A stretch of 64,000 nt of DNA from positions 31,181 to 95,180 of the IMG/VR virus record IMGVR_UViG_3300045971_000277. One strand, written 5' to 3'. A program made the translations under genes and the position numbers. Source of the stretch: a virus. The stretch's first letter is position 1. The number at the start of each line of letters is the position of its first letter. Below, piece after piece: positions 6,748 through 35,786 of this stretch. The notes under the pieces are model-generated. The model made no database searches. It saw only the letters and a program-made list of their open reading frames with translations, and had not been told where the DNA came from.

Positions 6748-7170
6748 ATGCGTAAACTACTTTGGTTAGTTCTTCTATTACCCGTCGTTGCATCAGCCCA
6801 ACAGGTGGCGAATCAAGGTCAAGGTAGCCCATCGACTGTCGCGCCATGGCGTGTCACCGTTACGTCCCCCGGCGGTGTTGCTACGGCCAGCGGCGCTATC
6901 TTGGCTCCGGGCGTACCGACCAACGTGGCTGTTAGCACGTCGTCGGCCGCCATTACTGGTCTGACGGCTAAGTCGACCCTACGTCTGATCTGCACCGTCG
7001 ACGTTCAGTATCGGGTCGGCACGGGTGCCATTACGGCAGTGACGACCGACAATGACCTACCGGGCCGTGTTATTGAGTATATTGCGTTGCCAACCGGCAT
7101 GACGTCGATTGCATTCGTCACGACGTCCGGGTCAGGCACGTGTAAAGTAGCCGTGATTCCGTCGGCCTAA
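6748..7170 (+). CDS. Small secreted beta-sandwich protein (Sec signal peptide)
   Basis: MRKLLWLVLLLPVVASA|QQ with A-S-A cleavage motif; two Cys in the mature domain. Confidence 0.7.
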   Translation: MRKLLWLVLLLPVVASAQQVANQGQGSPSTVAPWRVTVTSPGGVATASGAILAPGVPTNVAVSTSSAAITGLTAKSTLRLICTVDVQYRVGTGAITAVTTDNDLPGRVIEYIALPTGMTSIAFVTTSGSGTCKVAVIPSA

Positions 7171-7180
7171 AGGAGTTCAG

Positions 7181-10100
7181 ATGCGGCGTTTAGCCTTACT
7201 TATACTGCTGGTCGGTACGGCAGCGGCACAGACGTCACCGGAGTCGAACGCGCATCAGGGTGCGACGACGATGTCGAGCTACCCGGGCGGTCTGGGCCCG
7301 ATATTTGAAGACGTGCCGGATCTAAATCAGCACACGCCCGGCCTGATCACGCCCGATGCCAACGCTGTCGTCCATCTGGTGTGGGACGGTACTGCGCTTG
7401 TTAACCGCATCGGACCCGCCTTCACGATGAACGGGACGGTGCCGCAGGTTCCGGCGCAGTGGTGGGGGCCGCCCGGGGCTGGGCCGTACAGCAATCTCAA
7501 CTATTATTCGGTAACCAGCGGGCTCCCGTCTTCTGGAGACTTCTCCGTTTGCGCAGTCTATTCGTGCCCCACCGCGATCCAGATCGACGCCTATGTAGTG
7601 GCGGTGAACGACAGCGCACTGCAAAACGGCTGGGGGCTGGATATCCGCTGCGGTAGGCCCACGCCCGGCTCTGGTTTCTATACGTTTAACGCGGGTGCTG
7701 GTGCTGGTAGTGCCCCGCTTGGGAGCGGCCCCACTCTCGGTGCAGCGCATGTTACCTGTGCAGGTAAGTCTGGTGCGGCTGTGTATATCAAAGAGGACAA
7801 CGGCGTAACCGTTACTGGAGCGGCTAGCACTTACGGCACCCCCGTCACACCGGTTAGAGTGGTCGGCAACCAGTCGAATAACATGCTGCCGTTCCTTGGC
7901 ACCATCCACGAAGTCTACGCCACCACCACACCCTTCAACGAGACCACCGTCGCCGCGCTGCAAGCCTCGGTGATGGCGAAGATCAACCAGCCCGCCACCG
8001 TACTGCACTGGACTGCTGAAGACTGGAACATGATCAGGTACGGGGAGCAGTTTGAGAATGCGGCGTGGGCGAACACCGGCCTTAATATGGGGCTCGCAGT
8101 TGATACTCAGACTGCCCCTGACGGTACGTTCACCGCTGACTACCTTTACAAGGCAACCAGCGCAGGTTCGACCTCGTTGGTGCAATTTGTCGGGGCGGTC
8201 CAGCCCGCTAACACCCCGCTGACCGTTTCCATCTACGCTCGCGCTTCAGTGACCAGCAGCCAGTTTGACCTCGGCCTATCTTGCGGCGGCTGGGTTGCTG
8301 GTGGTACCGGAAAAGTCGTGTCAGGCCCCGGTATCGTTACGATGGCGGCTGGTACGCTGGGTAGAGTTACCGGTCTGAGCCAGACGCAGTGGACTCGTAT
8401 CGCTGTCAGCGCCCTCGCCCCCGGAGCACAGGCTTGCCAGTTTTACCTGTACCCGGATACGGCAGGCTCATCCACCGTAGGCGCAGGCGTCTACGTCTGG
8501 GGCGCCAGCATGACCCGCTCCACGGTCCCGCTGCCATACAAGAAGCCCAGCACGACCGGCGACACCTTCGTGATGCAGGGCGTGGTTCCGTACTCCAAGG
8601 TGTCTCCGATGATGCCGAACGGGTCGGGCGCGGGGCGCAGGGGTGTGGGCACGTTTACGACGGGGATCTACTTCGATGCTCCTAACAGTACGTTAGGTGA
8701 GTGGGCTGGCGACTGGAACGTGAGCGTAGCCTTCGTTCCGACCAGCTTTGCCGCCACACAGCTACTAGTTGGTAAGCCAAACAATTTGACGAGCGCAGGC
8801 TGGAAAATGTACGTGGACACATCAGGCCGGTTGGTGTGTCAGCGCCACAATGGCGCATGGACCGGCGCTACCACTACCTCTGGCCCGGTGGTTATTGGGT
8901 CCGTCAACGTAGGGACTTGCGGCCTTGCGTCAGGCGTACTGAACGCCAAGCTAAATGGCGGTGCTACAGTTACCGCAGCGTCTACCGGTGCGACAACATC
9001 GGCAGCTTCTTTTGCCTTTAAGGTTGGGGCGTCCGTTGACGGCAACGCTGGCACCACCACCAAGATCTACGAAGTCTGGGCCACCTCGACACCCTTCAAC
9101 GAAGCCAACGTCGCCGCCATCCAAGACGCGGCCATGCGGAACGGCGACCCGACTCGGGCGCTGTTCCCAGACGACGCCAACACGGTCCTGCATCTTGTAG
9201 GAAACAGCTACGACGGCACGACTTGGCGGGCGCCGCAGGCCACGATGACGACGGTCGGCACCGTAGGTTATTCGGATGCCTTCGTGCCCAGCCCTGAGTT
9301 GCCGCGTGACAGCTATGGGCCTTGGTCGGATACGAACTACCTGTCGCTGGGTTCTGGATCAGACGTTCTCGACACCACCGGGGATCGGTACGGGTGCGCG
9401 TTGTTCACGCCGACGAGTCTAAGCGCCGCAGGGTTTATTTTTATCGACGGACAGCCCAGCATCGCTGGACAAAATCTAAAGTTACAGATTGGTGGCGCGA
9501 TCTCGTACTCCTCTTCAGTACCAACAGAGAAGGCCATCAACACTGGCAATTTGGCTCTATCCAATTCACCAAACGTGGCCTGTTACTGGAGATCGGGGAA
9601 TACGATTGCGGCTAAGTTGAACGGGGGAACTTCGACAACGTTAGACGCCACCGCCCTAGAAGTTTCTGGGGTCTCTTATTTTGCAAAGCTGGGCAAGTAC
9701 GAATCGGCTAGCTTCTCCTTCCCCGGCCAGATCCACGAATTCATCGCGGGCAACGGAGCGTGTCCGAACAACAACTGTGAGGCGTGGGCGACGGCTACGC
9801 AGCGCCGCGTGCTGGGTATGCTGACGGCACAGGGGCAAACGGTTGCAGTCACCCGAACGACTCCAGAAACCTACGAGATCCCGGGTACTGGTCAGACGCT
9901 CTGGACGGCACCCGCAGGTACGCCCGCCATCTCTGCTGATGGTATCGGGATCTTCAGGGCCACGACCAACTATGCGTTGCAGAGTGAGGCTTCGTGCGTA
10001 GGAAATCTGGTTCAGGCTCCTTGGGCCCTGACGGGAGTACCCGTACCGACCTGCACGACGGATACAGGTGTCGCGCCTAACGGGACGACCACGATGGACC

Positions 10101-11059
10101 TGTGGGACAACACCGCTAATGCCTCTTCCCGCCTAGGGTATACCGCCCCAACAGCGAACACCACCACGGGAACTGTAAGTACGTGGGCCCAGACAATGAC
10201 TGGAACGGGCCCAACGCTGATCATTGATATGACGGCAGGCACCGCGTCTGGTTGCTCTTGTGGAGGGTCCGTTTGCATCCCCACCCCAGCCTCCACGTAC
10301 TGCTCTGCTGCTTTTAGTGGGGTGGCTGTGCCAACACGCCTGTGGATTTCGGCAAGCACGAACGCCACTGTAACGGGCATCAGCGCCCAGTTTGTTCCGG
10401 GGCAATGGGGGACCTCCACGGGGTCAACCCGCTTCTGGGGCGTTCAGGTCGAGTCCTCCTCTCGCCCCACCCCCTACACGGGCGCGACCACGACAGCAGC
10501 AGTCACCCGCAACGCCGACAACATCACGATCCCGATCCAGATCACGCCCAGCAACACTCGCTGGTGCGCTGGCGGGACCTACACGCCCTACATGCGCGGG
10601 TGGGCGAACCCGGAAGGCACCATCAACACGCTCTGGGCCGCAGGCGCTTTTGATGCTGCCAACTCGGGTCGGCTTGAGATCGGAGGTACGAAGCTGGCGT
10701 ACACGCTGGTGGATTACCTCGGCACTCCCAAGCGACTGGAGTACGACGCCACCGCGATCACAACGGGCTCGCACAAGGTTCAGTCCTGTGTTGCAGACGG
10801 AAGAATGGCGCTCTACGTCGATGATGTGCTGGTGGGGGCTGGCTACACCTTCGCGGCTCCTGACTGGCAGACGATCCGGCCCGGGGTCTGGCTCACACCT
10901 CCTACGACGGTGACTCTGGGAGCGCGTGTGAACCAGACCAACCACTTCGATGGTTATGTCAGGGACTTCAACTTCAAGCGCGACACGTTCTCGTCGGGCA
11001 TGATCATGCAACTCGATGCGGCGCTTGCGGTCTGGGCTCCATTCAACGGGGTAAACTAA
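7181..11059 (+). CDS. Large secreted multi-domain LamG/concanavalin-like and CBM-like fibre/adhesin protein (paralogue 1)
   Basis: MRRLALLILLVGTAAA|QT signal peptide; repeated LamG-like units (FSVCAVY, HVTCAG, IHEVYAT); head-fibre-like CBM units (W...A.APDGT.TA...VYVWGA, FWGVQVE..PTPY); many Cys. Confidence 0.7.
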   Translation: MRRLALLILLVGTAAAQTSPESNAHQGATTMSSYPGGLGPIFEDVPDLNQHTPGLITPDANAVVHLVWDGTALVNRIGPAFTMNGTVPQVPAQWWGPPGAGPYSNLNYYSVTSGLPSSGDFSVCAVYSCPTAIQIDAYVVAVNDSALQNGWGLDIRCGRPTPGSGFYTFNAGAGAGSAPLGSGPTLGAAHVTCAGKSGAAVYIKEDNGVTVTGAASTYGTPVTPVRVVGNQSNNMLPFLGTIHEVYATTTPFNETTVAALQASVMAKINQPATVLHWTAEDWNMIRYGEQFENAAWANTGLNMGLAVDTQTAPDGTFTADYLYKATSAGSTSLVQFVGAVQPANTPLTVSIYARASVTSSQFDLGLSCGGWVAGGTGKVVSGPGIVTMAAGTLGRVTGLSQTQWTRIAVSALAPGAQACQFYLYPDTAGSSTVGAGVYVWGASMTRSTVPLPYKKPSTTGDTFVMQGVVPYSKVSPMMPNGSGAGRRGVGTFTTGIYFDAPNSTLGEWAGDWNVSVAFVPTSFAATQLLVGKPNNLTSAGWKMYVDTSGRLVCQRHNGAWTGATTTSGPVVIGSVNVGTCGLASGVLNAKLNGGATVTAASTGATTSAASFAFKVGASVDGNAGTTTKIYEVWATSTPFNEANVAAIQDAAMRNGDPTRALFPDDANTVLHLVGNSYDGTTWRAPQATMTTVGTVGYSDAFVPSPELPRDSYGPWSDTNYLSLGSGSDVLDTTGDRYGCALFTPTSLSAAGFIFIDGQPSIAGQNLKLQIGGAISYSSSVPTEKAINTGNLALSNSPNVACYWRSGNTIAAKLNGGTSTTLDATALEVSGVSYFAKLGKYESASFSFPGQIHEFIAGNGACPNNNCEAWATATQRRVLGMLTAQGQTVAVTRTTPETYEIPGTGQTLWTAPAGTPAISADGIGIFRATTNYALQSEASCVGNLVQAPWALTGVPVPTCTTDTGVAPNGTTTMDLWDNTANASSRLGYTAPTANTTTGTVSTWAQTMTGTGPTLIIDMTAGTASGCSCGGSVCIPTPASTYCSAAFSGVAVPTRLWISASTNATVTGISAQFVPGQWGTSTGSTRFWGVQVESSSRPTPYTGATTTAAVTRNADNITIPIQITPSNTRWCAGGTYTPYMRGWANPEGTINTLWAAGAFDAANSGRLEIGGTKLAYTLVDYLGTPKRLEYDATAITTGSHKVQSCVADGRMALYVDDVLVGAGYTFAAPDWQTIRPGVWLTPPTTVTLGARVNQTNHFDGYVRDFNFKRDTFSSGMIMQLDAALAVWAPFNGVN

Positions 11060-11060
11060 C

Positions 11061-14000
11061 ATGAAGAAGCTACTGCTACTGGCTCTGCTGATCCCCGTGC
11101 AATCAATTGCGGACGGCGTCTTCACGGAAGATGCAAACGTGGTCCTGCATTGGGTGGCGGACGAGTGGAACATGATCAGGTTCCCTGAGGCGTTCACGGC
11201 TGGACAGTGGCCCAGTGGGACGGTTTCTGCGACGGTGACCGACAACTTCGCGGCGGCCCCGAACGGGACGATGACTGCCGCGAGGGTTGTCTGGGCTGCC
11301 GGTGCGCCTCGCTACGTGGTATCCGCCGCAGTAGTTGAGGGCTCCACGGTACACACGGCATCTATGTGGCTGAAGTCCAACACCGGAGCCAACCAAGTCT
11401 TGAGGCTGTTTTCCTGTGGGGCGCTGCCTCTGGTCGATACCACCGTCACCACAACTTGGCAGCGTTTCTCGGTTACTTGCACCACCACAGCTACCACCGG
11501 ACTGAAGCAGGTGGTTGGGGTCTACTCGGCCACCACCAACGTCGCGGCCGACATTCTGATCTGGGGCGCTCAACTGGTCCGTGGCGACCGTGCGCTACCG
11601 TACAAGAGCCCTCCGGTGGCGAACCTGCTGGCAAGCCCGAAGGCAATTGGAACTTCTCCTTGGCTCTCTTCCGGGTGCGCTTTTGGTAACTGGAGCGCCT
11701 TGGTGGCTACGCAGAATTCGGTGGCGTCCCCAGACGGTGTTGTCACGGCCACCAAGTTGGCTTTGGGCGTTACAGGGAATAGTTCTAACTCGGTGTGCCA
11801 AGTTCTTTCGGCCACCCCATCGGCTATCTACAAGTTAGGCGTGTGGCTGAAGGGCGATGGCACTCTCTCGTCCGTACAGATGGGGTTTAACACCGGTAAC
11901 TCTGGGGTCTTGGTGTTAAACAACAGGCAGACGAAGACTTGTCCCCTCACGACTGCGTGGAGTTACTGCGAAGGCATCGGCTACACGTTCCCCGCCAGCG
12001 GGTCAAACCAGATCGAGCCATACATCCAGGTCGATTCCATCCAGCCGTCTGGGGCCGCCTTCTACGCTTGGGGAGCGACACTCACCCGCGCCGACCAGCA
12101 AGGCGACACGCTGGTGATGAACGGCACGGTGCCTGTCTCCAACTCCACGCTGTTCCCCAGCGGGTACGGTACTGGACGTAGGGGGGTGGGGCCATATGCT
12201 GCGGGCGCACCCCTTTTTAATTCAGACATCCCGGTTGCCACCAATACGGCCGCCTTTACCGTATGTGTGGCTTACTACCCACAAAGAGATATTGCAAATA
12301 ACGAATTACTAATAACCACTGGGCAATACAACGTCAGTGGTTTTCAACTGTGGCATCGACCTGACCCTGCCGGGTATCAGGGGGTTTTCAACACCTCGAC
12401 GGCGGGTCTAATAACGCAATCTATGGCAGCTATACCCTCTATGCGGGGACTGTCGGTGCTCTGTGGGGGCGTGAACGGCAGCAACCAGTACGTTAAAAGC
12501 AACAGCGGGTTGACTTACACTACAGCTTCACCAAAAACAACTCCCGGAACTCTCACCAAGATTGGCATCGATGCCGGAGTCGGTAGTGGTGGTAGCACCC
12601 TCATTTACGAAGTCTACGTCACCAACTCCGCGTGGAACGAAGCCACCGTGACGGCCCTGCAATCGGCTGCACTCGCACAGGGCGATCCCACGAAGCCGCT
12701 GTTCACGCCTGACGCCAACACCGTCCTGCACCTGAAGGGGAACGACTACACGGGCGGCAGTGTTTGGGCGGGCGACTACGGCAGCGTCACGAAAGTCGGA
12801 ACCGTGGGGTACAGCGACAGCTTCGTACCTCCGATCCAGAACCGTCTTGCCCGCCAAGCGTATGGTCCGTTGTCTTCATCGAATTACCTCTCTCTAGGTG
12901 CTGGTGCCGACGTTCTCGACTTTGCTGGCGACTTCACGGTGTGCGCCGTGGCTACGTCCCCAGTGGGACTTACCGCCCCTATTGTCGGATCTGGAAACTT
13001 TGGGGCTTCAGGTGCTGGGTGGGACATGGGCGTTACTTCGTCTTCCGGTTACATCAACACCTTTGCGACGGGGTCCACCATCACTGGTACGACCACCAAC
13101 GCTCTGACTGTGCCGGGAGGCGGGCCTACCGTAGTTTGTGCAGGCCGGGCTGGTAGCACGCAGTACGTTAAGGCAAACGGTGGAACAACCGTATCGTCAG
13201 CGGGGGCAAAGACTACCCCAGATACTACCACCCCCTCTTACATAGGTAAGCGTGGCGATGCTGGCGGTGGTTTCTTCTCTGGACAAGTTCTAGAAGTCTA
13301 CGCCACCACCTCCGCATGGAACGAAACGACCGTCAGCAACCTCCAGAAGAAGGCCCTCGGCATGATCCTGCCCACGGGTCAGACTCTTTCAGTCACCCGT
13401 GCTGGCCCGCAAACGGTTGCAGTCCCGACCGCTACTGGCCCTGCTGTCGTTACGGTTCCTGCGGGCGCTCCTGCCTTGGGTCCTGACGGGATCGAGGTGT
13501 ACGGGACGAGGGTGAATTCGATCCTGCAAAGCCAGACCATCGCTTCGGGTACCAACTACATCGCACCGTGGACAGCAAACCTGACCACCGTCACCGAAAT
13601 CGCCGGGGGTCCAAGCGGATCTGGTTCATGGGCGGAAGTCACCTCCACTAACGTACAAGGCGGGACCGACGCAGGGACAGTCACCATCCCGTCCAACGCC
13701 GTCTACACGTTCTCTATCTGGGCGTCGAAGTCGTCTGGCACCGGGTACGCCGGGTTGATGGGTATGACTTCCAACAACATAGCAGCATCGTCATGCTCTT
13801 GCGGGCGCAGCGATGGGGGTGCGTGTACGGCCCAGAACACGGGGCCTGCTGGTACTTCATACTGCTACTTCACCCTCCCAGACCTAGGGACCACTCCGAT
13901 CCGTATGTGGCTTACGGTAACTGGGCCGTCGGCTGCTACGGCCCCCAGACTGCTCCTTCTGCCGGGGCAGTATCCGACCGCTGTCGGCACCACCCGTTTC

Positions 14001-15068
14001 TGGGGCGCACAAGTAGAAGCAGGCGTCACCACACCCGGCCCGTATTGTCCTACTACGACGGGTACTTGTACGACGCCCGCCACGGTAGCGACGGTTCCAC
14101 TACCGGTGCTGGGGTATGCGAACCTGTATTTCCAGAGCGAGACTCCCGCGTCATGGTCTCGTAAGTTCGGGGTGGTGAACACCGACAACCAAATTCTATC
14201 CCCGGTAGGCACCATGACCGGCGGGCAGATTACGGAAGACGGCACGACGGCAGTCCATTACACAGACACGACCGTGACGACGGCCAACGCCCCCCACGCT
14301 TACTCGATATCACTCAAGGCTGGAACGAGGACTTGGGCCACCATCAACAAGGCGGGAGGGACGGCTGAGTATTGCTACATCAATCTGATGACCGGGGCGC
14401 TAGGGTCTTGTTCCCCGTCCTTTACCGGAAACGTGACCGTAACGGCGCAGCCCAACGGCTGGTGGAGGGTCAACGTGACCTACACACCTCCTGCTGGCGG
14501 GGTGTTCTGGGGCGTCGGTCTTGCCTCCTCAGATGGGGTGAATAGCTACACAGGCGACCCCAGCAAGTACATCTACGTCTGGGGTGCTCAACTCACCGCT
14601 ACCCCCACCGTCCAGCCCTATGTCCCCACTACGTCCGCGATTGCATACGGCGGGAACAAGTGGTGCGTGGGGGTGACGGGGCAGCCGCCTGCTGGGATCT
14701 GGCCGGGAAGCGTTGGCGGAAACTATTTGATCAGCATCGGTGTCGCGGGTTTGGCTAACTCGTTTGGGCTTTACAGAGCAGCCGCCTCCGGGGCGGTGTG
14801 GGCGTACCTTTGGGACTCCGGAGCGGTGCTCCGAAACACAGGGACAACGGCGACTATGAGTACCGGACCTCATCGGTTCGTCGCCCACAACTCTGCCGGT
14901 ACCTTGACGCTCTACGCGGACGGGATAGCTACCACCTCGTCGGCTGCTGGGACAGCGTTGTTCAGCGCCACCTCCGCCACCCTATCGATGGGTTCCGGCG
15001 AGGGAGAAAAGATCATCTCCAACCTCAAGATCGTCAACAACCCCAAGTCATGGCGTGAGTGTTTTTAG
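11061..15068 (+). CDS. Large secreted multi-domain LamG/CBM-like fibre/adhesin protein (paralogue 2)
   Basis: MKKLLLLALLIPVQSIA|DG signal peptide; same scaffold motifs as 7181 (LHW...WNMIR, GRRGVG, EVY.T...NE.TV..LQ, DANTVLHL, VGTVGYSD.FVP, NYLSLG.G.DVLD). Confidence 0.7.
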   Translation: MKKLLLLALLIPVQSIADGVFTEDANVVLHWVADEWNMIRFPEAFTAGQWPSGTVSATVTDNFAAAPNGTMTAARVVWAAGAPRYVVSAAVVEGSTVHTASMWLKSNTGANQVLRLFSCGALPLVDTTVTTTWQRFSVTCTTTATTGLKQVVGVYSATTNVAADILIWGAQLVRGDRALPYKSPPVANLLASPKAIGTSPWLSSGCAFGNWSALVATQNSVASPDGVVTATKLALGVTGNSSNSVCQVLSATPSAIYKLGVWLKGDGTLSSVQMGFNTGNSGVLVLNNRQTKTCPLTTAWSYCEGIGYTFPASGSNQIEPYIQVDSIQPSGAAFYAWGATLTRADQQGDTLVMNGTVPVSNSTLFPSGYGTGRRGVGPYAAGAPLFNSDIPVATNTAAFTVCVAYYPQRDIANNELLITTGQYNVSGFQLWHRPDPAGYQGVFNTSTAGLITQSMAAIPSMRGLSVLCGGVNGSNQYVKSNSGLTYTTASPKTTPGTLTKIGIDAGVGSGGSTLIYEVYVTNSAWNEATVTALQSAALAQGDPTKPLFTPDANTVLHLKGNDYTGGSVWAGDYGSVTKVGTVGYSDSFVPPIQNRLARQAYGPLSSSNYLSLGAGADVLDFAGDFTVCAVATSPVGLTAPIVGSGNFGASGAGWDMGVTSSSGYINTFATGSTITGTTTNALTVPGGGPTVVCAGRAGSTQYVKANGGTTVSSAGAKTTPDTTTPSYIGKRGDAGGGFFSGQVLEVYATTSAWNETTVSNLQKKALGMILPTGQTLSVTRAGPQTVAVPTATGPAVVTVPAGAPALGPDGIEVYGTRVNSILQSQTIASGTNYIAPWTANLTTVTEIAGGPSGSGSWAEVTSTNVQGGTDAGTVTIPSNAVYTFSIWASKSSGTGYAGLMGMTSNNIAASSCSCGRSDGGACTAQNTGPAGTSYCYFTLPDLGTTPIRMWLTVTGPSAATAPRLLLLPGQYPTAVGTTRFWGAQVEAGVTTPGPYCPTTTGTCTTPATVATVPLPVLGYANLYFQSETPASWSRKFGVVNTDNQILSPVGTMTGGQITEDGTTAVHYTDTTVTTANAPHAYSISLKAGTRTWATINKAGGTAEYCYINLMTGALGSCSPSFTGNVTVTAQPNGWWRVNVTYTPPAGGVFWGVGLASSDGVNSYTGDPSKYIYVWGAQLTATPTVQPYVPTTSAIAYGGNKWCVGVTGQPPAGIWPGSVGGNYLISIGVAGLANSFGLYRAAASGAVWAYLWDSGAVLRNTGTTATMSTGPHRFVAHNSAGTLTLYADGIATTSSAAGTALFSATSATLSMGSGEGEKIISNLKIVNNPKSWRECF

Positions 15069-15800: not shown

Positions 15801-15807
15801 AGGAGAT

Positions 15808-16962: not shown

Positions 16963-17192
16963 TGGACCCGATTATTACAAAGATGTTAGAGGTGTGGGGC
17001 CTACCCAGCGCATTCGTTATTGCGCTCGCGGTTGGTATTAAGGTCCTATATGACCGTAACAATGAGATTCAAGATGCGCGACTAGAAGAAGCCAAAGAAT
17101 ACGCGAAGGACCTGTCGGAAATCATCACCAACCTACGTGCTACTTTGGATAGCCTAACTCAGGCCATTCATGCGTTAATGGCGAGGAAGTAG
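16962..17192 (+). CDS. Single-TM holin-like (BhlA-like) protein
   Basis: Start set at ATG 16962 (TAATG overlap); WGLPSAFVIALAVGIKVLY TM then coiled coil. Confidence 0.5.
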   Translation: MDPIITKMLEVWGLPSAFVIALAVGIKVLYDRNNEIQDARLEEAKEYAKDLSEIITNLRATLDSLTQAIHALMARK

Positions 17193-17193
17193 T

Positions 17194-27010: not shown

Positions 27011-27733
27011 ATGATCAAAATCACCCTACTAGCACATAAGGCATGCGTAAAGTGCAATAAAAGTAAGCCGGTTAGCGAATTCCCACGACGCTACACTGGA
27101 TACCGCAATGATTGTAAAGTATGCAATCGAAATGGTGCGAGACAACGTTATGTAGATAACGCTGATAGATATTTACAAACCAAAAAGTTGCGCTATACTG
27201 GAGATCAAGAATACAAACAGCGGCGTAATGCTATGACTAACTCGTGGTATGCTAACAATAAGGATCAAGTTTCCGCCGCTAGCAAGAAATACTATCAAGA
27301 GAACAGAGAGCAGATTTTGGCTCATAGTAAGGTGTATTATCAAGACAATAAGCTACAGATTCTATCTAGAGATAGAGCGTATCAGGCAGGTAATCGTGAT
27401 AAAATAAACAAACGTCGTAAAAATAAGCTTAAGACTGATGTTAATTTTAGGCTTGGCATGAATCTACGACATAGGGTGAAAAATAGTTTACGATCTGGAT
27501 CAGCCGTGCGCGATCTGGGTTGTACCATAGATGAACTGCGGCAACATTTGGAGTCTAAGTTTCAGCCCGGTATGACGTGGGACAATTATGGGCTACACGG
27601 ATGGCATATCGATCACATCCGGCCGCTGGCTAATTTTAGTTTGGAGAACAGGGAAGAGTTCTTAAAGGCTGCGCATTACACTAATTTGCAACCGTTGTGG
27701 GCCAAGGATAACTTGGTTAAGGGTAATAGGTAA
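27011..27733 (+). CDS. HNH-type homing endonuclease
   Basis: KACVKCNKSKPVSEF...CKVC; Tyr/Lys-rich helical middle; GMTWDNYG..GWHIDHIRPL...HYTNLQPLWAKDNLVKG; AT-rich. Confidence 0.88.
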   Translation: MIKITLLAHKACVKCNKSKPVSEFPRRYTGYRNDCKVCNRNGARQRYVDNADRYLQTKKLRYTGDQEYKQRRNAMTNSWYANNKDQVSAASKKYYQENREQILAHSKVYYQDNKLQILSRDRAYQAGNRDKINKRRKNKLKTDVNFRLGMNLRHRVKNSLRSGSAVRDLGCTIDELRQHLESKFQPGMTWDNYGLHGWHIDHIRPLANFSLENREEFLKAAHYTNLQPLWAKDNLVKGNR

Positions 27734-29277
27734 TGAAATTAACGGTAACCAATATCAGTGGCTCAGTCGTTTCGTCTCCCGTCGGAGTTCTACAGCCGCG
27801 TGAGTCATACCCCAGGACCGGCACAGCTGACATCACTAAGCAGAAATTTGATCGGATTCAGCCAGAGTTGGAGACGCTTCGTCAGCGTGGAGCACTAACG
27901 TACTCTATATCAGCTGGCCGCGCTGATATTGATCCAATGACGACTGATTATATTGCCTACATTGATTCGGTCAATGGAAGTGATAATAACGATGGTCTTA
28001 CGCAGAATACGGCGTGGGCCACTATTGATAAGGCACTCAATAGTGCTCCGCTGTCGTGGACCGGCAAGTGTCGGATCTATGCTAAGGCAGGCACGTATAA
28101 GTTGGCCGCTAACTGTATTAGCACCGGTATTCCAATAGGGAGCACAGCCGAACCGTTCGCGTTTATTGGAGAGATGATAGATTCCGGCGTCGGTGTAGCC
28201 ACATGTTCTGCCGGGTCTACCACAACTGTTATTAATACTAGTGCTGTCTTAGTATCAGACGCCCACTATGGGAGACGTGTAAGATTCTTAACTGGTGCAT
28301 TAGCTGGTAAAACCTCACATGTTGTAGCCAACACTACATCTTCAGTGACAGTATTAGTACCACTTAGTTCTGCTCCACTTACTAGTGATACATTTGTAAT
28401 TGAGATGCCTGGTACTATAATCCAGCTACCTGATCTTAATTGCTTAATATCATCTGGCGGCATTGCTGCAAGTTTCATATCTACAGTTCCAATGTCTGCT
28501 ACATTTAACAGTGTAAAGTGGAAACTTGGGACTATAACATGGTTAATAGTCAGCGGTGGTACTACTCATATTAATTTTGATTCAAATGAGTTTATATTAG
28601 GTACTGCTACTAATAGTAAGTTGACCTGTGAGGCTGGGGCATCAATTAGTTCTAGAAGATTGTCTACTGAAGTAGGCCCTGATAACAGTTTAGTAGCCAG
28701 TGTCATCGTGTCCAATTCAGGATCATCTAGCTTAGTTGTCAGAGGTCTATATCCTACTAGTCAATCTTGTGCATTGTACGTACAATTTGCTGGATTCTTA
28801 TCTGGATTTACTAATTTAATAACAGATAATGCATCCTTTAGTTTGTCTGCTTACAACTCATCTGTAAGCTACGCGTATATGCGAGCTGGGTCATTATATG
28901 TTAATGATAATGCATCGTTATGGACCCCATTCCCGATTGTCATAGATGGTAAAAATCTAACATCAGTAGGAGTTAAGATAGAGCAGGGATCAATTATGGT
29001 AAATGGGTCACCTTCAGTATCTGTTTCAAATGTAAATGGCGATGCCGTACAGTTGTCTGAAAGTAGCAGATTTAGAACAGCATCGTTGACTGGTACTGGC
29101 AATACTGGTTATGGAGTTAAATTAGGGGATGGATGCATGGCTGTTGTCAGTGCATCATCTGTTACCGGCGCGGCAGGTGATATTATCGTGGGCGACACCG
29201 TGACGACGCATGCCGCGTTGACCACAGCTGGGTTCGTTACAAACGCTAATTATTTGGCACGAATCAGTAGGACATAA
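27733..29277 (+). CDS. Virion appendage protein: docking N-terminus shared with ORF 2126 + pectin-lyase-like beta-helix
   Basis: MKLTVTNISGSVVSSPVGVLQP homologous to 2126; YIDSVNGSDNNDGLT...AWATIDKA beta-helix cap motif; beta-helix-like C-terminus. Confidence 0.65.
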   Translation: MKLTVTNISGSVVSSPVGVLQPRESYPRTGTADITKQKFDRIQPELETLRQRGALTYSISAGRADIDPMTTDYIAYIDSVNGSDNNDGLTQNTAWATIDKALNSAPLSWTGKCRIYAKAGTYKLAANCISTGIPIGSTAEPFAFIGEMIDSGVGVATCSAGSTTTVINTSAVLVSDAHYGRRVRFLTGALAGKTSHVVANTTSSVTVLVPLSSAPLTSDTFVIEMPGTIIQLPDLNCLISSGGIAASFISTVPMSATFNSVKWKLGTITWLIVSGGTTHINFDSNEFILGTATNSKLTCEAGASISSRRLSTEVGPDNSLVASVIVSNSGSSSLVVRGLYPTSQSCALYVQFAGFLSGFTNLITDNASFSLSAYNSSVSYAYMRAGSLYVNDNASLWTPFPIVIDGKNLTSVGVKIEQGSIMVNGSPSVSVSNVNGDAVQLSESSRFRTASLTGTGNTGYGVKLGDGCMAVVSASSVTGAAGDIIVGDTVTTHAALTTAGFVTNANYLARISRT

Positions 29278-29278
29278 C

Positions 29279-30475
29279 GTGGCGATTTCGGAAGACCTAA
29301 GCTTACGCACGAACATACCGACCAACCCGGATCAGCCGGGTCGGTTGCCGGGTCAACTTGGTCGGATGACCGAATTGGTCAAGAATGTGTTTGTGTACGA
29401 ACTCCGTCATTATTTCGATAGTCAGACAAGCCCGGACCGGCTCGCTATGGTGCCGGTTATTCAGAAGTTCGCTTCAGATCTTCCCGCGCCCGACCGTGAA
29501 CTTGATCCGCTCGAAACTATTGTACGCGTTATCCGGAGCCATCCTGACATTACGGAACGCCTGCCCTATATCGGCATCGCCGCATCGGCTGGCAAGAACA
29601 TGAAGCTGGCGATGAGTGGTAAGTACGTCGACGCGGTTCGCCATCTGCCACGTTTGGTCGCCGGTACCGGCGCATACGCGCCACCGGTTGGCACGCCTGC
29701 CGTGGTGCCGTCAGCGCTAGACCTAACACAGTTTGATGACAACGGCCAGCCGGGCGTGCCTGTAGATTGGCCTGCCCCGCTCGGTATGGCCCAGTATGGA
29801 TTAGTTGGAGCCGATTATGTTGAGTTCACGACGTCATTTGACGGCGCGGTGTATACTGATCATATTAGCTTCAACGATATATATCTTGGGGTGTCTCCGC
29901 AAACCCCACGGATGATTGCGGACGCCATTAACAATCAGGCCCTATATTGTCAAGCTCATGTGGTGTTCTACAATAATGTACCAACGCTCGTAATCGAGCC
30001 CGGTGGCCCTTGTGGTCGTGGCACGTACGTGACGATTCAAAAGACGGCTGCGACGGCCAACTTTGACGCTTATATTAATCTGCCGATCCTACAGAAGTCC
30101 GCGCCATCTGATGAGTTTCCGACGTCTAACCGCTACCTTAACAGCATGTCGATGACGATCAGCATGGTTTTGGGTACGGACGGTGAGAACATCCGGGCGG
30201 AACTGACCGACTTGGTCCAGAACTTCTTCTGCTTTGTCATGGAAGACCGTCACTTCACCTTCTACGGTCGCTCATTCTTCCATGCCGACATTCCTGACGA
30301 GACCTACCAGATCCTAATTCGTGATAATGAGATCACCCCAGTGGGCGAACAGGAAGTAGCACGGCAGGACGATCCGATGCGTAAGGTATATATCAATAAA
30401 GTTGATGTGCCGGTGCATCTACTTTATTATGTCGACCGTAACGTGCAGGTCGGTGCGTATATGGGAGAACTATAA
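29279..30475 (+). CDS. Putative tail terminator/completion protein
   Basis: GTG start; position between neck and sheath genes; contains an IADAIN insertion module like the sheath. Confidence 0.5.
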   Translation: MAISEDLSLRTNIPTNPDQPGRLPGQLGRMTELVKNVFVYELRHYFDSQTSPDRLAMVPVIQKFASDLPAPDRELDPLETIVRVIRSHPDITERLPYIGIAASAGKNMKLAMSGKYVDAVRHLPRLVAGTGAYAPPVGTPAVVPSALDLTQFDDNGQPGVPVDWPAPLGMAQYGLVGADYVEFTTSFDGAVYTDHISFNDIYLGVSPQTPRMIADAINNQALYCQAHVVFYNNVPTLVIEPGGPCGRGTYVTIQKTAATANFDAYINLPILQKSAPSDEFPTSNRYLNSMSMTISMVLGTDGENIRAELTDLVQNFFCFVMEDRHFTFYGRSFFHADIPDETYQILIRDNEITPVGEQEVARQDDPMRKVYINKVDVPVHLLYYVDRNVQVGAYMGEL

Positions 30476-30960
30476 TGGCTGTCACAACACCCATAACATT
30501 ACCGACAACACGCACGGACCTACCCGGACGTAGTCTGCCTGATACCTCTACCCGTTGGGCCGCGGTCGAATGCAACGCTACGATTGGAGCGATTCGCGAG
30601 CGTATGTGCTGGCGCGGCCCGTGGGTTATCACACCGCAGTATGCGAGTAACGACGTCGTGACGTATAATAATAAGATATACGTCGCTTTTATGGCCAATG
30701 TCGGCAACGTTCCACCCGGCACTGCGTGGGACTTGCTCGCAGCTACGTCGGCTCCAGTCGACAATGAGGTTCCGGTCGGAACCGTAGACGGCGTCAATCC
30801 GACGTTCACATTGGCAGCCGTGCCGGCGACTGGCTCACTTCATTTATACTTGAACGGCGTTCGATTACGTCCGACTACCGACTATACTGCAACAGGATCT
30901 ACCATTACGATGTTGATGATACCACAGGTCGGGGATTGGCTTTATGCGGATTATCGTTAG
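30475..30960 (+). CDS. Small virion protein with CBM5/12-like motif and C-terminal beta module
   Basis: W....QYASNDVVTYNNKIYVA; NEVPVGTVDGVNPTFTL...LYLNGVRL...DYT...TITM. Confidence 0.6.
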   Translation: MAVTTPITLPTTRTDLPGRSLPDTSTRWAAVECNATIGAIRERMCWRGPWVITPQYASNDVVTYNNKIYVAFMANVGNVPPGTAWDLLAATSAPVDNEVPVGTVDGVNPTFTLAAVPATGSLHLYLNGVRLRPTTDYTATGSTITMLMIPQVGDWLYADYR

Positions 30961-32146
30961 TATCATTATAGCGTTAGTCTGGTCCACTGCGATGGCGGCT
31001 CCGACTGGCATTGGAGCGAACCAGATTCGTACGGCGCAGCCTAATGCGGTAGACATGAGTGGAGTCGCAGTGGCGGAAGGTAACTCACTGTCGGCTTCAC
31101 GCGCGGATCACACGCACCCAATCACCGGCATTCTGCAGCCTGCCCATGGTGGCACAGGTGTGAGCAACCTCAATTGTCCAGCTGGACAAGTGCTGACGTC
31201 AAATGGCTCAGTGTTTTCGTGTGTGGCTGCCGCAATATCCGCATACGCTAGGGCGTCAGTACCTGCGTGTGATGCAACTACGGCTGCACAAGAGATCCGT
31301 GTACACGATGCTGGCCAGTCTGATGAAACGTGGGTATGCATAAGGCGGGATACGACCTACGCTTGGTCGACGTATTCGATGGCTGCAAATTCAAATGCTG
31401 CTGTAATGGCTGACGGTACGTTGATAGCTACGGTAGGTGTAGTATGGACCTCTGCTCCATCAGGAGATGCCTGCGTTAACCAGCTCACGAGCGTAAGTAC
31501 ATTAGGCGCAGCTCACTCAGGTGAGTGCGTTAATCCACGTACTGACGTTTATGGCACTTACACGTGGCGTAGCACCGCTATGTGGATGGCTGTGGGAGCT
31601 ACAAATAAGTTTTACGGCGCTGAGATCAGACTAACAGGGTCAATCCCAGTTACATTTGGGCCAGCCTCTACGCCTGATAACTATCAGTGCGGCGCTGGCG
31701 GCGGTGAAGATGTATGCAATTATGACACACCGTATGATGTGGTGGGATACAGCAGAATGTATCCGTGCGCACTAAACTCTACTACATGTTGGATTGGTGC
31801 CACTACTTACACTGGATGGCGTCACTATAGCGCGGTCAATACTGTATCGTCTAGAAAACTAATCATAAAGAGTAGCCCTATGACTGCTAGCGGGACGGTA
31901 ATTTGGTCCAGTGCGGCAGGCGTTAACGCTATCACCTGGAATAAGGGCTGGAACTTGATACGTGCTGATAACGTTAATCCACCGGCAGGTATTAACGCCG
32001 ACGACTACTATTGGGTGGTGATTAAGCGCTTCGATTTCGGTCCTTGGTATAGCTGCACTGGACCGATATGCTTACCTGCTAATAATGACAGTGAAGCATT
32101 GGTGAGCCATCCAGCCTCATGGGTAGTGACAAAGGTTCTTAGGTGA
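30944..32146 (+). CDS. Secreted fibre-like protein, paralogue A
   Basis: MRIIVSIIIALVWSTAMA|APTG; fibre motifs AEGNSLSASRADHTH and HGGTG; 12 Cys. Confidence 0.7.
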   Translation: MRIIVSIIIALVWSTAMAAPTGIGANQIRTAQPNAVDMSGVAVAEGNSLSASRADHTHPITGILQPAHGGTGVSNLNCPAGQVLTSNGSVFSCVAAAISAYARASVPACDATTAAQEIRVHDAGQSDETWVCIRRDTTYAWSTYSMAANSNAAVMADGTLIATVGVVWTSAPSGDACVNQLTSVSTLGAAHSGECVNPRTDVYGTYTWRSTAMWMAVGATNKFYGAEIRLTGSIPVTFGPASTPDNYQCGAGGGEDVCNYDTPYDVVGYSRMYPCALNSTTCWIGATTYTGWRHYSAVNTVSSRKLIIKSSPMTASGTVIWSSAAGVNAITWNKGWNLIRADNVNPPAGINADDYYWVVIKRFDFGPWYSCTGPICLPANNDSEALVSHPASWVVTKVLR

Positions 32147-32150
32147 AAAC

Positions 32151-33380
32151 GTGAAAAAACTTACCTTAGGTTTGCTATTAATCAGCGTAGCATTAGCCGC
32201 ACCAACTGGTATCAACACTAACCAGATCAGGACGGCTCAGCCTAACGCGATCGACTTGGCCGCACCTTCAGTAGCCGAGGGTAACTCGCTAGGAGTGGCA
32301 CGTTCCGATCATACCCACTCTATTACAGGCGTACTCCCACAGTTGCATGGCGGTACAGGTAGCGCTAGCGTAGCATGTGGAGCAGGTCAGGTACTGACGT
32401 CGGATGGAACGACTTACACATGTGTTAGCGCTGGATTGACGACGTATGCCAGAGCTTCCGTACCAGCATGCGACGGGTCAAAGATATCCAGCGAGATAGT
32501 TGTGCATGATGCAGGTCAGCCTGACGAGACTTGGGTGTGCGAGTTAACTGCAGCCGCTGCGTATATGTGGACGGTGTACGCTCAGGTGCCTAACTCTACA
32601 GTTCAAGTTATGAGCGGCAGCGGCATGCAGTTCGTTACTGTTGGAGGTACATTTACTCCTGCATATATGAATGGGCAGGTGTTCTGCAGCGTGTCGCTGA
32701 CCTCGACACAGGCGGGCCCAGCTACTAGTTCTGGATGCCGTAGGGACACACCGGACTACTGCGGCGCAGGATGTACAGGATCCTTTAAGATAGGGGCGAT
32801 GTATTTAGCTGTAGGCGCGACCTCACGCTTCACTCGCGTTAGACTGGAGTTGAGTGGCACGCCTTGGCCTATGCTTCAACCGTGTGTCGGGTCAACTCCA
32901 GCTAGCTGCACGGCTAACATAACTAGCGGGCAAAGGGTGATGCAGTACGGCTCGCCTTACGCGTATGCTTCATGGCCCGTTGCATGGTCTAGTGGCGGGT
33001 CAGGCGCATCGCTTCAGATAGGAGTGCTGTGGGATACATACGGGAGCGTTTATAGCGTGCAGGTGGCTTCTCCCTACAATAAAGTATTCCAAACTAACCA
33101 ATTCGTACGGTCAGGCGATTTGAAGATATCGCTTGATGCGGCTGCTAGGAATGCGTGGCTTCCTGGCTGGAATGCTTCACTCGGACCTGCCCCAACTGGC
33201 GTTAATGCGGCTAGCTACTATTGGATGGTATACACTTGGGATGGCGCCTATGGTACCCCATGGACGAGCACTGTTAACGCGCCGTGGACTTACGGTGCAG
33301 GCTGGGGCGCTTGGGAAGCTGAGGCTCAGGCTCCTGTTACTAATTACACAGTCAGAGCTGCGGGAGTCTGGGATGATTAA
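32151..33380 (+). CDS. Secreted fibre-like protein, paralogue B
   Basis: GTG start; MKKLTLGLLLISVALA|APTG; same N-terminal ~150 aa as A and C; 10 Cys. Confidence 0.7.
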   Translation: MKKLTLGLLLISVALAAPTGINTNQIRTAQPNAIDLAAPSVAEGNSLGVARSDHTHSITGVLPQLHGGTGSASVACGAGQVLTSDGTTYTCVSAGLTTYARASVPACDGSKISSEIVVHDAGQPDETWVCELTAAAAYMWTVYAQVPNSTVQVMSGSGMQFVTVGGTFTPAYMNGQVFCSVSLTSTQAGPATSSGCRRDTPDYCGAGCTGSFKIGAMYLAVGATSRFTRVRLELSGTPWPMLQPCVGSTPASCTANITSGQRVMQYGSPYAYASWPVAWSSGGSGASLQIGVLWDTYGSVYSVQVASPYNKVFQTNQFVRSGDLKISLDAAARNAWLPGWNASLGPAPTGVNAASYYWMVYTWDGAYGTPWTSTVNAPWTYGAGWGAWEAEAQAPVTNYTVRAAGVWDD

Positions 33381-34581
33381 ACTGGCCTTAGCGCTACTCC
33401 TCACAGCGCCTACCGGCATCAATACGAACCAGATCAGGACGGCTCAGCCAAACGTATTAGATGTAACGGGAGTAACGGCAGCTGACGGTAACGTTTTAGA
33501 TGTGGCGAGAGCCGACCATGGTCACGCTGTGACGGGTACTCTACAACAGTCACACGGTGGTACGGGCGCTGGCAGCGTAGTTTGCCCAGCAGGTCAAGTG
33601 CTGACGTCAAGCGCAGGTGTAGTGTCATGCGTGAGTGCCGGTATCAGTGCATACGCTCGCGCCTCAGCCCCCACGTGTGATGCGTCGCAGGTGTCAAAAG
33701 AGATAAGGGTGCACGACACAGGCCAAGCGGATGAGACATGGGTATGTGAGTTGCGCGATACGACTTACGCGTGGACCGTATACTCACAAGCACCTAATTC
33801 GACTGCTCAAGTAATGGCTGATGGTACAGGCTTAGTCACAGTTGGCGGGGTCGTAGCCAGTGTAGGCGATAGGTTTCTTAGCAGCGCAGTACCTGCCTAC
33901 GGTGCACCAACTGCTACGGTATTAGTAGATGCGCAGTATGGCTCACGTATGGCTTCATATTTCGCGGTAGGCTCAACTAAGAAGTTTTCGCGTATCTATT
34001 TAAACGTACGCAACCCGCCTAAGGACTCTACTTATTTATGCACAGGCGCTTCATATACGCATTTTAAGTACTTAGATGGTGGCTGGACACAGGGTGGACT
34101 TAATTGGACGCCTAGCACATTAGAAGCGAGCAATGGTTGGTTTAATTACGGTGTTCCTGCGCTTCTGCAGCAAAGCGGTACCGTTCCTACATGCGGCAAT
34201 GTGACTGTTACTAAAGCCACTACGGGTACATTTGGCTCTTCTACAGGTACTCCATGGGGTGCGGATACAGGTGTTACACAGTTTTTAACTTGGCGACCGT
34301 TCGGTGTTGATGGCTATATCGAGTTCACAGGCGCTAACGTAAACTGGACTAAGGGATGGAGCTGTCTTGGTTACGGTAGCGGTTACGGTACTGCCGCACC
34401 CACAGGCATCAACGCAAACGATTATTACTGGGTCGTATTTAGCGTACTCACTGACTGGACTGTACACTCATGCTCAACCGACCCCACTGCAGGTACATGC
34501 GGTAGTTTTTTGGGTGGTAATGTGTACCGACGGGGTGACAACTACTCACCATTAGTAATCTACGCAACAAGTGTGGAATAG
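33373..34581 (+). CDS. Secreted fibre-like protein, paralogue C
   Basis: Start set at ATG 33373 (GGGAG upstream; overlaps previous stop); short hydrophobic leader MIKLALALLLT then APTGINTNQIRTAQPN; 9 Cys. Confidence 0.68.
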   Translation: MIKLALALLLTAPTGINTNQIRTAQPNVLDVTGVTAADGNVLDVARADHGHAVTGTLQQSHGGTGAGSVVCPAGQVLTSSAGVVSCVSAGISAYARASAPTCDASQVSKEIRVHDTGQADETWVCELRDTTYAWTVYSQAPNSTAQVMADGTGLVTVGGVVASVGDRFLSSAVPAYGAPTATVLVDAQYGSRMASYFAVGSTKKFSRIYLNVRNPPKDSTYLCTGASYTHFKYLDGGWTQGGLNWTPSTLEASNGWFNYGVPALLQQSGTVPTCGNVTVTKATTGTFGSSTGTPWGADTGVTQFLTWRPFGVDGYIEFTGANVNWTKGWSCLGYGSGYGTAAPTGINANDYYWVVFSVLTDWTVHSCSTDPTAGTCGSFLGGNVYRRGDNYSPLVIYATSVE

Positions 34582-34589
34582 GGGATAGG

Positions 34590-35786
34590 ATGAGTAAACT
34601 TATTTTAATTGTGCTTCTTTTCGGTATCGCGCTGGCCGATCAAGGGCCGCCCGTATACCAAGCCACTGGAACCGTACCGGGTACCGGCATTGCCTGCGAC
34701 GGTAATCGGGTTCAGTTTGAAACTGCGACGGGTATTGGATGGGGTTGCGTTAGCGGAGCGTGGAAGAAGCTGAACGACCCCACCGCTAGCTTCTTACTAA
34801 ACTACTCCAATCCAGCGTATCCTAATGCTACGGCTGTATCTAGTTTAGCTACCGGGTTGCTACTGAATACTCAGTACATTGGCATAAGCAGCACTGTCGC
34901 ATTACCACTATCAGTAGCCAACGGTGGTACGGGCTCGACAACCGCAGGCGCTACGACTCAGGTATTGTTCAACGACGTTGGTGTGATTAACGGCGACGCG
35001 GGTCTTACTTACGACAAGACCAACGATACGCTAACCTTCGGGACCGCAAACGGCACGGACGCTGTAAAATTCACCACGGCTGGGGCCCGTCTTCGGCTGT
35101 CCTCGGGCGGCACAAGTGACTACCTGTACGGTGATGGAGCGTTTCGCCTCCTGACTCCTGGCATCCTCAAGCCGGCTCAGATTGAGTCCAATGCCGGGAC
35201 AGCCACCTTCCTGTTTCACGGGCTCTACGCCACTACGCCTTTCGTAACTCCCGTGTGGCAGTTCGACAATTCCTACTACGGGAGTGGAGTGTTATTCTCC
35301 ATCCTCGACGGCCCAAGCGGAAGTGGGACTACGAAGGTGGCCTATGAAATCAACACCAGCCGCACCGGGCCGGGCCCGATCCAACATACGTTTGGAGTCA
35401 CAAACAGCACTGCATCTATTCAAGCTAACGCTATTATAACTCAAGGTAGCACGGCGGGGACGGCCAAACTAACGCTAGACGAGGTGTTCTCGGGTCGACT
35501 TGAGGGTCGTGATGGTACCATAAACTACGCGCCTCTTATCGGTACCAGTTCAACAGCTGCGACATCCACTAGTCTCGTTACGCAGTTTTACAGGAGTGGC
35601 GACCTAAAGGTGTCAGTTTGCGCGGTATTCGCCGATGGACATACTTCATGTTCTGGGCCACTCGCTGCTGTGCCCAGCACAGCAACTACAGCGTGCACTG
35701 CTGGACAGATTGCTGCCGACGTGACTTATTTATATATCTGCTACGCTACCAACACATGGCGTCGTGTGGCTACCGCTACGTGGTAG
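34590..35786 (+). CDS. Secreted tail-fibre-like protein
   Basis: MSKLILIVLLFGIALA|DQG; LPLSVANGGTG and QVLFND.G...GDAGLTYDK fibre motifs; C-terminal AGQIAAD..YLYIC.ATNTWRRVA..TW motif; 6 Cys. Confidence 0.7.
   Translation: MSKLILIVLLFGIALADQGPPVYQATGTVPGTGIACDGNRVQFETATGIGWGCVSGAWKKLNDPTASFLLNYSNPAYPNATAVSSLATGLLLNTQYIGISSTVALPLSVANGGTGSTTAGATTQVLFNDVGVINGDAGLTYDKTNDTLTFGTANGTDAVKFTTAGARLRLSSGGTSDYLYGDGAFRLLTPGILKPAQIESNAGTATFLFHGLYATTPFVTPVWQFDNSYYGSGVLFSILDGPSGSGTTKVAYEINTSRTGPGPIQHTFGVTNSTASIQANAIITQGSTAGTAKLTLDEVFSGRLEGRDGTINYAPLIGTSSTAATSTSLVTQFYRSGDLKVSVCAVFADGHTSCSGPLAAVPSTATTACTAGQIAADVTYLYICYATNTWRRVATATW

Follow-up and report, generated by a model that had tools for sequence, protein, structure and literature searches.

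In the textbook model, tailed phages assemble wholly in the reducing cytoplasm. Phages also encode exported proteins, among them the spanins, Lom and Bor of lambda, and Llp of T5. The signal-peptide genes of Porphyromonas phages have been read as envelope modifiers adapted to the host signal peptidase (Matrishin et al. 2023, PMC10367356). The predatory bacterium Bdellovibrio bacteriovorus encodes its mosaic adhesive trimer (MAT) fibres in the chromosome and carries them on the outside of its own cells (Caulton et al. 2024, PMC10769870). The pentameric spike base of RcGTA has hydrophobic pockets into which the head fibre inserts its residues 2-10 (IALGLGLGL; Bardy et al. 2020, PMC7296036), and a hydrophobic N-terminus can hence also be a docking peptide. 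Here we describe nine plus-strand genes with hydrophobic leaders in a window of 64,000 nucleotides, namely, bases 31181-95180 of a single 101,896-bp viral contig from pond metagenomes (IMGVR_UViG_3300045971_000277); positions below are those of the window, and genes are named by their first position. The nine genes sit between the capsid and sheath modules of a tailed phage, and the other late genes are without a leader. Comparative sequence analysis leads us to consider, with a probability of about 0.8, that the leaders are genuine Sec export signals of the signal peptidase I type, and that seven cysteine (Cys)-rich, fibre- or lectin-like proteins among the nine most likely fold in the host periplasm, not in the cytoplasm. 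A full-text literature search returned no account of Sec-exported fibres in tailed phages.

The large terminase, the portal, and a protease fusion are encoded upstream of the window, and the major capsid gene, which spans the window start, has about 67% identity to the capsid gene of Virus Rctr197k. The order that follows, all on the plus strand, runs from a nuclease/modification gene mosaic through the leader-gene region to the sheath, tube, tape measure, baseplate, and 1657-amino-acid (aa) fibre genes and an Amidase_2 endolysin. The leader-bearing genes form three separate blocks: A (6748, 7181, and 11061), B (15071 and 16507, with transmembrane [TM] proteins), and C (30944, 32151, 33373, and 34590). 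They are listed here with the leaderless gene that precedes block C:

6748-7170, plus strand, block A: 140 aa; Sec-type leader MRKLLWLVLLLPVVASA before QQ (predicted cut after VASA), then an all-beta domain with two invariant Cys, the only two in the protein.
7181-11059, plus strand, block A: 1292 aa; leader MRRLALLILLVGTAAA before QT, then a multidomain lectin-like protein with 20 Cys; matches phrog_5939 "tail protein"; paralogue of 11061.
11061-15068, plus strand, block A: 1335 aa; leader MKKLLLLALLIPVQSIA before DG, then a lectin-like protein with 20 Cys.
15071-15499, plus strand, block B: 142 aa; leader MKKLLGILVVLQLA before C (ending LQLA before C), HELCH (HExxH) motif, 4-5 Cys; a member of the membrane cluster, not a fibre.
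16507, plus strand, block B: leader MKRLVALLLLLPMASLA before QT, then a coiled coil and a C-terminal TM segment.
30475-30960, plus strand, ahead of block C: 161 aa, leaderless, directly upstream of the fibre triplet; 61% identity to the syntenic gene of contig L001.
30944-32146, plus strand, block C: fibre paralogue 1; leader MRIIVSIIIALVWSTAMA before AP, conserved N-terminal stalk of about 150 aa, variable head, 12 Cys; orthologue in L001.
32151-33380, plus strand, block C: fibre paralogue 2; GTG start, leader MKKLTLGLLLISVALA before AP, 10 Cys.
33373-34581, plus strand, block C: fibre paralogue 3; short leader MIKLALALLLT before AP, ahead of the conserved APTGIN, 9 Cys.
34590-35786, plus strand, block C: fibre-like, 398 aa; leader MSKLILIVLLFGIALA before DQ, N-terminal module of about 100 aa (DQGPPVY..C..C), GGTG motif, swapped C-terminal part, 6 Cys.

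A sequence-only reading of the window had listed nine basic-hydrophobic leaders, and on translation all nine are found at the starts that it gave; the Cys counts and fibre motifs it reported for the smaller proteins (ARADHxH-like, GGTG, and YICYATNTWRR) are likewise present in the translated proteins. Seven of the leaders (6748, 7181, 11061, 16507, 30944, 32151, and 34590) are of the textbook kind, with the form M-[K/R/S]-[K/R]-L, followed by 9-13 residues of Leu-rich core, too few to span a membrane, often a Pro or Gly breaker, and small residues at -3/-1. These seven show the charged n-region, the h-region of about 7-15 residues, and the small -3/-1 residues that characterize substrates of Sec and signal peptidase I, and 33373 has a core of 7 residues and T at -1. 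In 15071 the residues Q-L-A-C depart from the lipobox pattern [LVI][ASTVI][GAS]C, and its LQLA before C is a noncanonical lipobox because of the Q at -3. Some distant relatives of the fibre family do have lipobox-like sites, but in these an AxA site comes after them too. The twin-arginine translocation (Tat) signature (S/T-R-R-x-F-L-K in a long, weakly hydrophobic leader) is also absent, as RR occurs in 7181 only and all of the leaders are strongly hydrophobic and just 11-18 residues long.

Such N-termini could in principle be chance hydrophobic stretches or the product of miscalled starts, and the ribosome-binding sites at the starts of 6748, 15071, and 16507 are indeed weak. Moreover, our rule for the n-, h-, and c-regions also flags 9 of 417 spurious open reading frames (2.2%). 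However, it flags 8 of 77 genes (binomial P = 2.6e-4), seven of which are listed above, the eighth being a small membrane protein outside the window; each leader gene begins at its first possible start or at one matching the start of its orthologue, and the leaders are kept in orthologues on other contigs. We therefore regard an artefact as extremely improbable. The rule misses 15071 and 33373, and it leaves the capsid, neck, sheath, tube, tape-measure, and baseplate genes and those of the 1774-aa and 1657-aa proteins unflagged, in keeping with the leaderless state that the sequence-only reading had ascribed to the sheath, tube, tape measure, baseplate, and two giant proteins.

Several lines of evidence, taken together, support export. 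In comparisons with orthologues in L001, only 2-8 of 10-17 leader residues are identical, versus 42-44 of the first 60 mature residues (for 34590, 8/15 in the leader and 44/60 at the mature end), and this boundary in conservation coincides exactly with the predicted cut. A profile of the fibre triplet was searched against 1.84 billion cluster representatives. Among 65 representatives (≤50% identity) with the fibre N-domain (TG.xT.Q..TAAP ... ARADHxH ... GGTG) near the start, 62 have a hydrophobic leader directly before the domain, with a K/R-bearing leader in 58 and an uncharged hydrophobic one in 4; the other 3 begin at the predicted mature end or within 4 residues of it. The leaderless, Cys-free member P0051 begins within 4 residues of that end. 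The contigs that encode these distant relatives are phage structural modules, and in one case (L044) the gene lies between baseplate genes. Matches with K/R leaders have a median of 1.9% Cys and even counts in 69 cases versus odd counts in 10 (P = 3e-12), those with uncharged leaders have 2.7% (21 versus 7), and leaderless matches have 0.6% (18 versus 8); Cys content differs between leader-bearing and leaderless matches with a Mann-Whitney P of 9e-6, and within this genome the medians are 1.6% versus 0.76% (P = 5e-4), with the proviso that the parity and P values overstate independence, as the sequences are related. In addition, one leader style is common to five unrelated protein families, of which the membrane protein 16507 is one. 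It is the drift of the leaders against a fixed mature end, the leader pattern ahead of the N-domain, the correlation with Cys, and the shared leader style that underlie our proposal of export, and they support well the earlier suggestion of export to an oxidizing compartment. The leaders also persist in the homologues, as that reading had asked to be checked: the L001 proteins, the homologues of 6748, and the L048 orthologue of 7181 all bear one. Apart from the relatedness of the sequences, three points weigh against this proposal: the leader calls come from our own rule and inspection, not SignalP; the leaders of 33373 and several relatives are merely 11-13 uncharged residues; and an excess of even Cys counts is seen in leaderless matches as well.

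A search among the proteins scanned for a Dsb protein, a signal peptidase, or a Sec factor of the phage itself found none. The minus-strand gene at 60366-61397 was considered as a trigger factor linked to export control and was dropped, having no Pfam match and Atlas structural look-alikes with Trigger_C that reach a TM-score of 0.2 only. Separately, we noted a second widespread group of Cys-rich phage proteins (P0030, P0033, P0105, P0120, P0135, P0138, P0147, P0152, and P0154), in which 9-12 uncharged residues of the form M..LLLALLLAQ are followed by a "RDEG...V.C.G.GVTC" module.

The proteins of block C have the architecture of a fibre panel. The paralogues 30944, 32151, and 33373 show 40-44% identity and combine a constant stalk of about 150 aa, which in 30944 reads APTGI..NQIRTAQPN..ARADHTH..GGTG, and four invariant Cys with divergent heads. 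The start of 33373 is backed by a GGGAG ribosome-binding site and by its L001 orthologue, which reads MTNLILTLLLT before APTGIN. The fourth gene, 34590, shows 69% identity to its L001 orthologue over the first 100 aa only, the remainder being swapped; its last 40 aa match phrog_17312 "tail protein," and its N-terminal module recurs in the distant leader-bearing relatives P0037 and P0125. When residues 17-175 of 32151 were modelled as a homotrimer, an ipSAE of 0.77 was obtained versus 0.00 for the best control; the mark is reached by 20 of the 30 solved pairs and by one of the 23 single chains; agreement between runs in contacts was ≥76%, the partner predicted local distance difference test (pLDDT) score was ≥79, and same-residue, on-axis contacts occurred at positions 50, 62, 68, and 82, near the HxH motif (H54/H56). 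The N-terminal region of 32151 is thus predicted, by modelling and not by measurement, to form a trimeric fibre. An AlphaFold2 model of 32151 (pLDDT 64) found no match in PDB with Foldseek at E ≤ 0.001, tblastn with 30944, P0048, and P0035 against 50,697 GenBank phage records gave nothing useful and no cultured relative, and a scan of metagenome contigs with the triplet profile gave no confirmed locus. The leaderless 30475 gene product, which has weak matches to CBM_5_12 and the tail-fibre family phrog_5073, is possibly an adaptor.

By this architecture, the MAT fibre family is the closest described system. In both cases a signal peptide is directly followed by a conserved beta-rich N-domain (about 130 aa in MAT and 150 aa here) and then by a fibre, predicted to be trimeric here, whose C-terminal tips are swappable and bear disulfides in MAT and probably also here; both families comprise many paralogues. 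The window genes differ in lying in tailed-phage late structural operons, and a PDB profile search found no sequence similarity to MAT proteins, of which PDB holds tip fragments only. With classical leaderless tail fibres (P0006, P0088, P0094, P0113, and others) the proteins share the (A/S)RADHxH...GGTG motifs and PHROG tail families, and the trimer prediction agrees with this kinship; in those fibres, however, the motifs are preceded by 80-400 aa of N-terminal domain, where a signal peptide stands here, and Cys are few (median 0.6%). Spanins, Lom, Bor, Llp, and the Porphyromonas phage genes resemble the window genes in placing Sec or lipoprotein signals on phage genes, some of them in late operons; unlike the latter, they are small and nonfibrous, and no trimeric fibre or giant lectin that joins a constant stalk to variable heads is among them.

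Block A shows signs of being a mobile cassette. For 6748 there are four homologues with 60-85% identity, all leader-bearing, in which the leader varies in length and sequence through indels and the mature part and both Cys are kept; its Atlas look-alikes are viral only, and its structure model is poor (pLDDT 48). The giant proteins 7181 and 11061 share 32% identity across about 850 aa and contain internal repeats and repeated modules. Residues 1029-1194 of 11061 match the RcGTA head-spike fibre Rcc01080 (PDB 6TB9 chain F3; E = 8.3e-20), and a RcapMu tail protein matches 11061 at 34% identity; 7181 has no direct PDB match. The domain-level homologues of 11061 are tail-fibre-like and leaderless, with 0.1-1.1% Cys. 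As 2 of 20 of these homologues (P0009 and P0023) carry PF02018 CBM_4_9, a CBM-like jellyroll is plausible in the 11061-type lectins. The GC content of block A is 0.599 versus 0.537 for the genome, and a 6748-like gene also lies directly ahead of a 7181-like gene in L048 (1113-4080), an unrelated high-GC contig of another lineage, with both genes leader-bearing and the 7181 orthologue comprising 836 aa with 14 Cys and the leader MRRAFVAIVAAFLAAGASA before Q. Both observations suggest horizontal movement of the module.

More generally, Pfam gave no match for any of the nine leader-bearing proteins, and hence no curated fibre family; the LamG and CBM lectin domains that the sequence-only reading had ascribed to them gave no Pfam match in any of the nine at E ≤ 0.01, and PHROG "tail protein" matches are limited to 7181, 11061, and the last 40 aa of 34590. 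That reading had also treated the nine genes as one new system. They are instead three unrelated blocks, one of them membrane- or lysis-like, and its identification of the leader-bearing set with fibre and lectin proteins stands for seven genes and fails for 15071 and 16507, which belong to a membrane cluster. Behind 15071, this cluster (15474-17394, plus strand) consists of small membrane and coiled-coil proteins, which, by first position, are as follows:

15474, plus strand: TM segment and coiled coil.
15808, plus strand: two TM segments and a Pro-rich tail.
16115, plus strand: TM segment and coiled coil; weak DUF2730 match.
16507, plus strand: the Sec leader, coiled coil, and C-terminal TM protein listed above.
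16962, plus strand: TM segment.
17194, plus strand: further member of the cluster.

The 15071 protein, for which neither Pfam nor PHROG gave a match, may be an exported mini-metalloprotease. Homologues of 16507 are found in L018 and L021, and in at least nine related contigs the capsid gene is followed by two analogous genes, one for a leader-bearing protein of 140-180 aa and one for a TM protein. The 15474-17394 cluster is probably a lysis or egress module. A spanin and holin locus would comprise an inner-membrane spanin with an N-terminal TM segment and a coiled coil, a lipoprotein spanin of the outer membrane, and TM holins beside an endolysin; the 15071-17394 region encodes TM and coiled-coil proteins but has no canonical lipobox, and the amidase gene is 42 kb away at 58725. 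The proteins 15071 and 16507 appear to use the same export route in a membrane or lysis-like module separate from the fibre and lectin genes.

The distribution of the fibre and lectin genes points to accessory cargo, not core parts of the virion. A total of 34 capsid-related IMG/VR contigs share a common backbone of portal, protease, and capsid genes, 5386-, 24398-, 25931-, and 29279-like genes, and the sheath gene, and none of the 34 carries a homologue of the leader-bearing fibre or lectin genes. In the window these genes occupy two variable slots, the first following the 5386-like gene and the second lying between the 29279-like gene and the sheath gene. Virus Rctr197k fills the first slot with leader-bearing, Cys-rich genes, which we considered as homologues of the window genes and rejected as such, there being no sequence similarity; they are analogous. 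A further arrangement was seen in L044, a myophage contig of 69% GC, in which three consecutive leader-bearing, Cys-rich genes (10001-15011; 906, 429, and 331 aa) lie between hub-region genes and gp25-like/Baseplate_J genes; PHROG annotation of this baseplate neighbourhood did not identify them. One of the capsid relatives falls in a metagenome-assembled genome labelled Actinomycetes, probably through binning.

Where the exported proteins go is a separate question. We tentatively propose, at somewhat less than even odds, that the fibre and lectin proteins join particles at lysis as optional virion appendages, and we slightly favour this route over a role away from the virion. Under this proposal, the accessory proteins, comprising the small beta protein with the two giant multi-jellyroll lectins (6748, 7181, and 11061) and four trimeric fibres in which the stalk is constant and the heads vary (30944-35786), would be expressed late and exported across the inner membrane via their Sec leaders. 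They would fold in the periplasm with paired disulfides and serve as head fibres in the case of the genes that follow the capsid gene and as neck or collar fibres in the case of those ahead of the sheath gene, meeting the cytoplasmic particles once holin lesions or lysis merge the compartments. This proposal rests on their kinship with virion fibres (the RcGTA domain, the PHROG tail families, and the trimer model), the location of the genes after those of the capsid and ahead of that of the sheath, the combination of a constant stalk with variable heads, and the nearly identical mature end of the leaderless family members. By extension, it is possible, again at less than even odds, that in several uncultured tailed-phage lineages, this one among them, some host-recognition parts are Sec-exported, cut by signal peptidase I, disulfide bonded in the periplasm, and snapped onto finished particles only within seconds of the holin lesions or in the lysate. 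Weighing against appendages of the virion are the absence of the genes from the 34 relatives, whose virions evidently form without them; the full set of leaderless fibres already encoded by this phage (17442, 49566, and 53749), with which the heads of the leader-bearing fibres share nothing; and the position of the leader, which takes the place of the N-terminal domain preceding the same motifs in leaderless relatives, so that no virion-docking element is evident. Further, we identified no virion partner of the leader-bearing fibres.

These same features, i.e., cargo in two variable slots, unlike heads, and the replacement of the usual N-terminal domain by a signal, would suit exported proteins that never join the virion and have a role in the envelope or act as soluble lectins freed at lysis, an explanation that we hold to be a serious though less than even possibility. 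Possible roles of this kind include masking the receptors or glycans that the dying cell and its remains expose, exclusion of other phages, adhesion, and binding of envelope glycans for egress. Such roles avoid the topological problem of bringing periplasmic proteins to cytoplasmic particles, and they agree with the nonhomologous leader-bearing, Cys-rich genes in the same slot of Rctr197k and with the occurrence of the GC-rich cassette elsewhere (L048). Lambda Lom and Bor and T5 Llp offer precedents. The MAT fibres, too, are exported fibre-like trimers that work as cell adhesins (PMC10769870). On the other hand, about 13 kb of late-operon coding would be a large cost for masking, tandem paralogues that keep the stalk and vary the head are usually the mark of receptor binders carried by the particle, and the L044 genes lie among baseplate genes; leaderless members that begin at or near the mature end also exist, and a purely periplasmic role would not tolerate them.

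A different explanation, which would dispense with export, is that the leaders serve for docking, each anchoring its fibre in hydrophobic pockets of a symmetric base on the particle. The docking mode of RcGTA has been solved (PMC7296036), and 11061 contains the RcGTA head-fibre domain. The likeness to Rcc01080 (GhsB, PDB 6TB9) extends to a jellyroll glycan-binding domain homologous to that of 11061, to genes that adjoin the capsid genes, as 7181 and 11061 do, and to a Leu-rich hydrophobic N-terminus; moreover, short and uncharged N-termini rich in Leu, which make poor textbook signals, occur in 33373, the L001 paralogues, L007, and about 28 representatives. However, Rcc01080 has an uncharged LGLGLGL plug without AxA and is assembled in the cytoplasm, whereas the window proteins have full tripartite leaders, with K/R n-regions, helix breakers, and AxA sites in seven of the nine, none of which a plug would need. 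RcapMu58, a phage relative of the RcGTA fibre, has 2 Cys in 326 aa, as opposed to 20 Cys each in 7181 and 11061, which are four times its length. We recognized no homologue of the RcGTA spike base, and the 6748 model (pLDDT 48) was too poor for comparison. A docking role also fits poorly with the same leader style in the membrane protein 16507, with the lipobox-like Cys at the end of the hydrophobic core in some relatives, and with leaders that drift freely and still keep their tripartite grammar, as well as with the tracking of Cys richness and even counts by leader presence, the uncharged class included. Cores so hydrophobic behind K/R would, in addition, be taken by the signal recognition particle or Sec. 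A docking peptide is thus an improbable explanation for the set, although it possibly applies to the short uncharged leaders.

Some other features of the locus deserve mention. HNH- or RRXRR-type endonuclease genes are dispersed in the structural operon (5386-6315, 25295-25927, and 27011-27733 in the window; 6337-6912 in L001; 18006-18893 in L008), and their slots vary among relatives: one such gene separates fibre from sheath genes in L001, and another precedes the sheath gene of Rctr197k. The proteins encoded at 2126-2785 and 27733-29277 are otherwise unrelated and show 45% identity over their first 60 residues, which points to a common N-terminal module. A 380-aa protein (52546-53688) has a run of about 15 Gly near its N-terminus, and a 276-aa protein on the minus strand (59245-60075) has 23 Cys and no Pfam match, its C-terminal 95 aa being 42% identical to an HNH-like gene of L001. 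In L002, a 352-aa phage protein with a DUF192 domain (12386-13444; E = 1e-24) is encoded upstream of the terminase gene.

If the leaders do direct export, the periplasm would be where a sizeable and widespread class of fibre-like late proteins matures and acquires disulfides. More than 60 clusters (≤50% identity) have the fibre N-domain directly behind a hydrophobic leader; the prediction of receptor-binding proteins, host-range engineering, and heterologous expression would then have to reckon with periplasmic expression. Should these proteins also join the virion, the timing of lysis would become an assembly step, and the phage would follow a two-compartment route outside the textbook model. 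If they do not, then phages would carry large arsenals of secreted adhesins, analogous to the prey-recognition fibres of Bdellovibrio.

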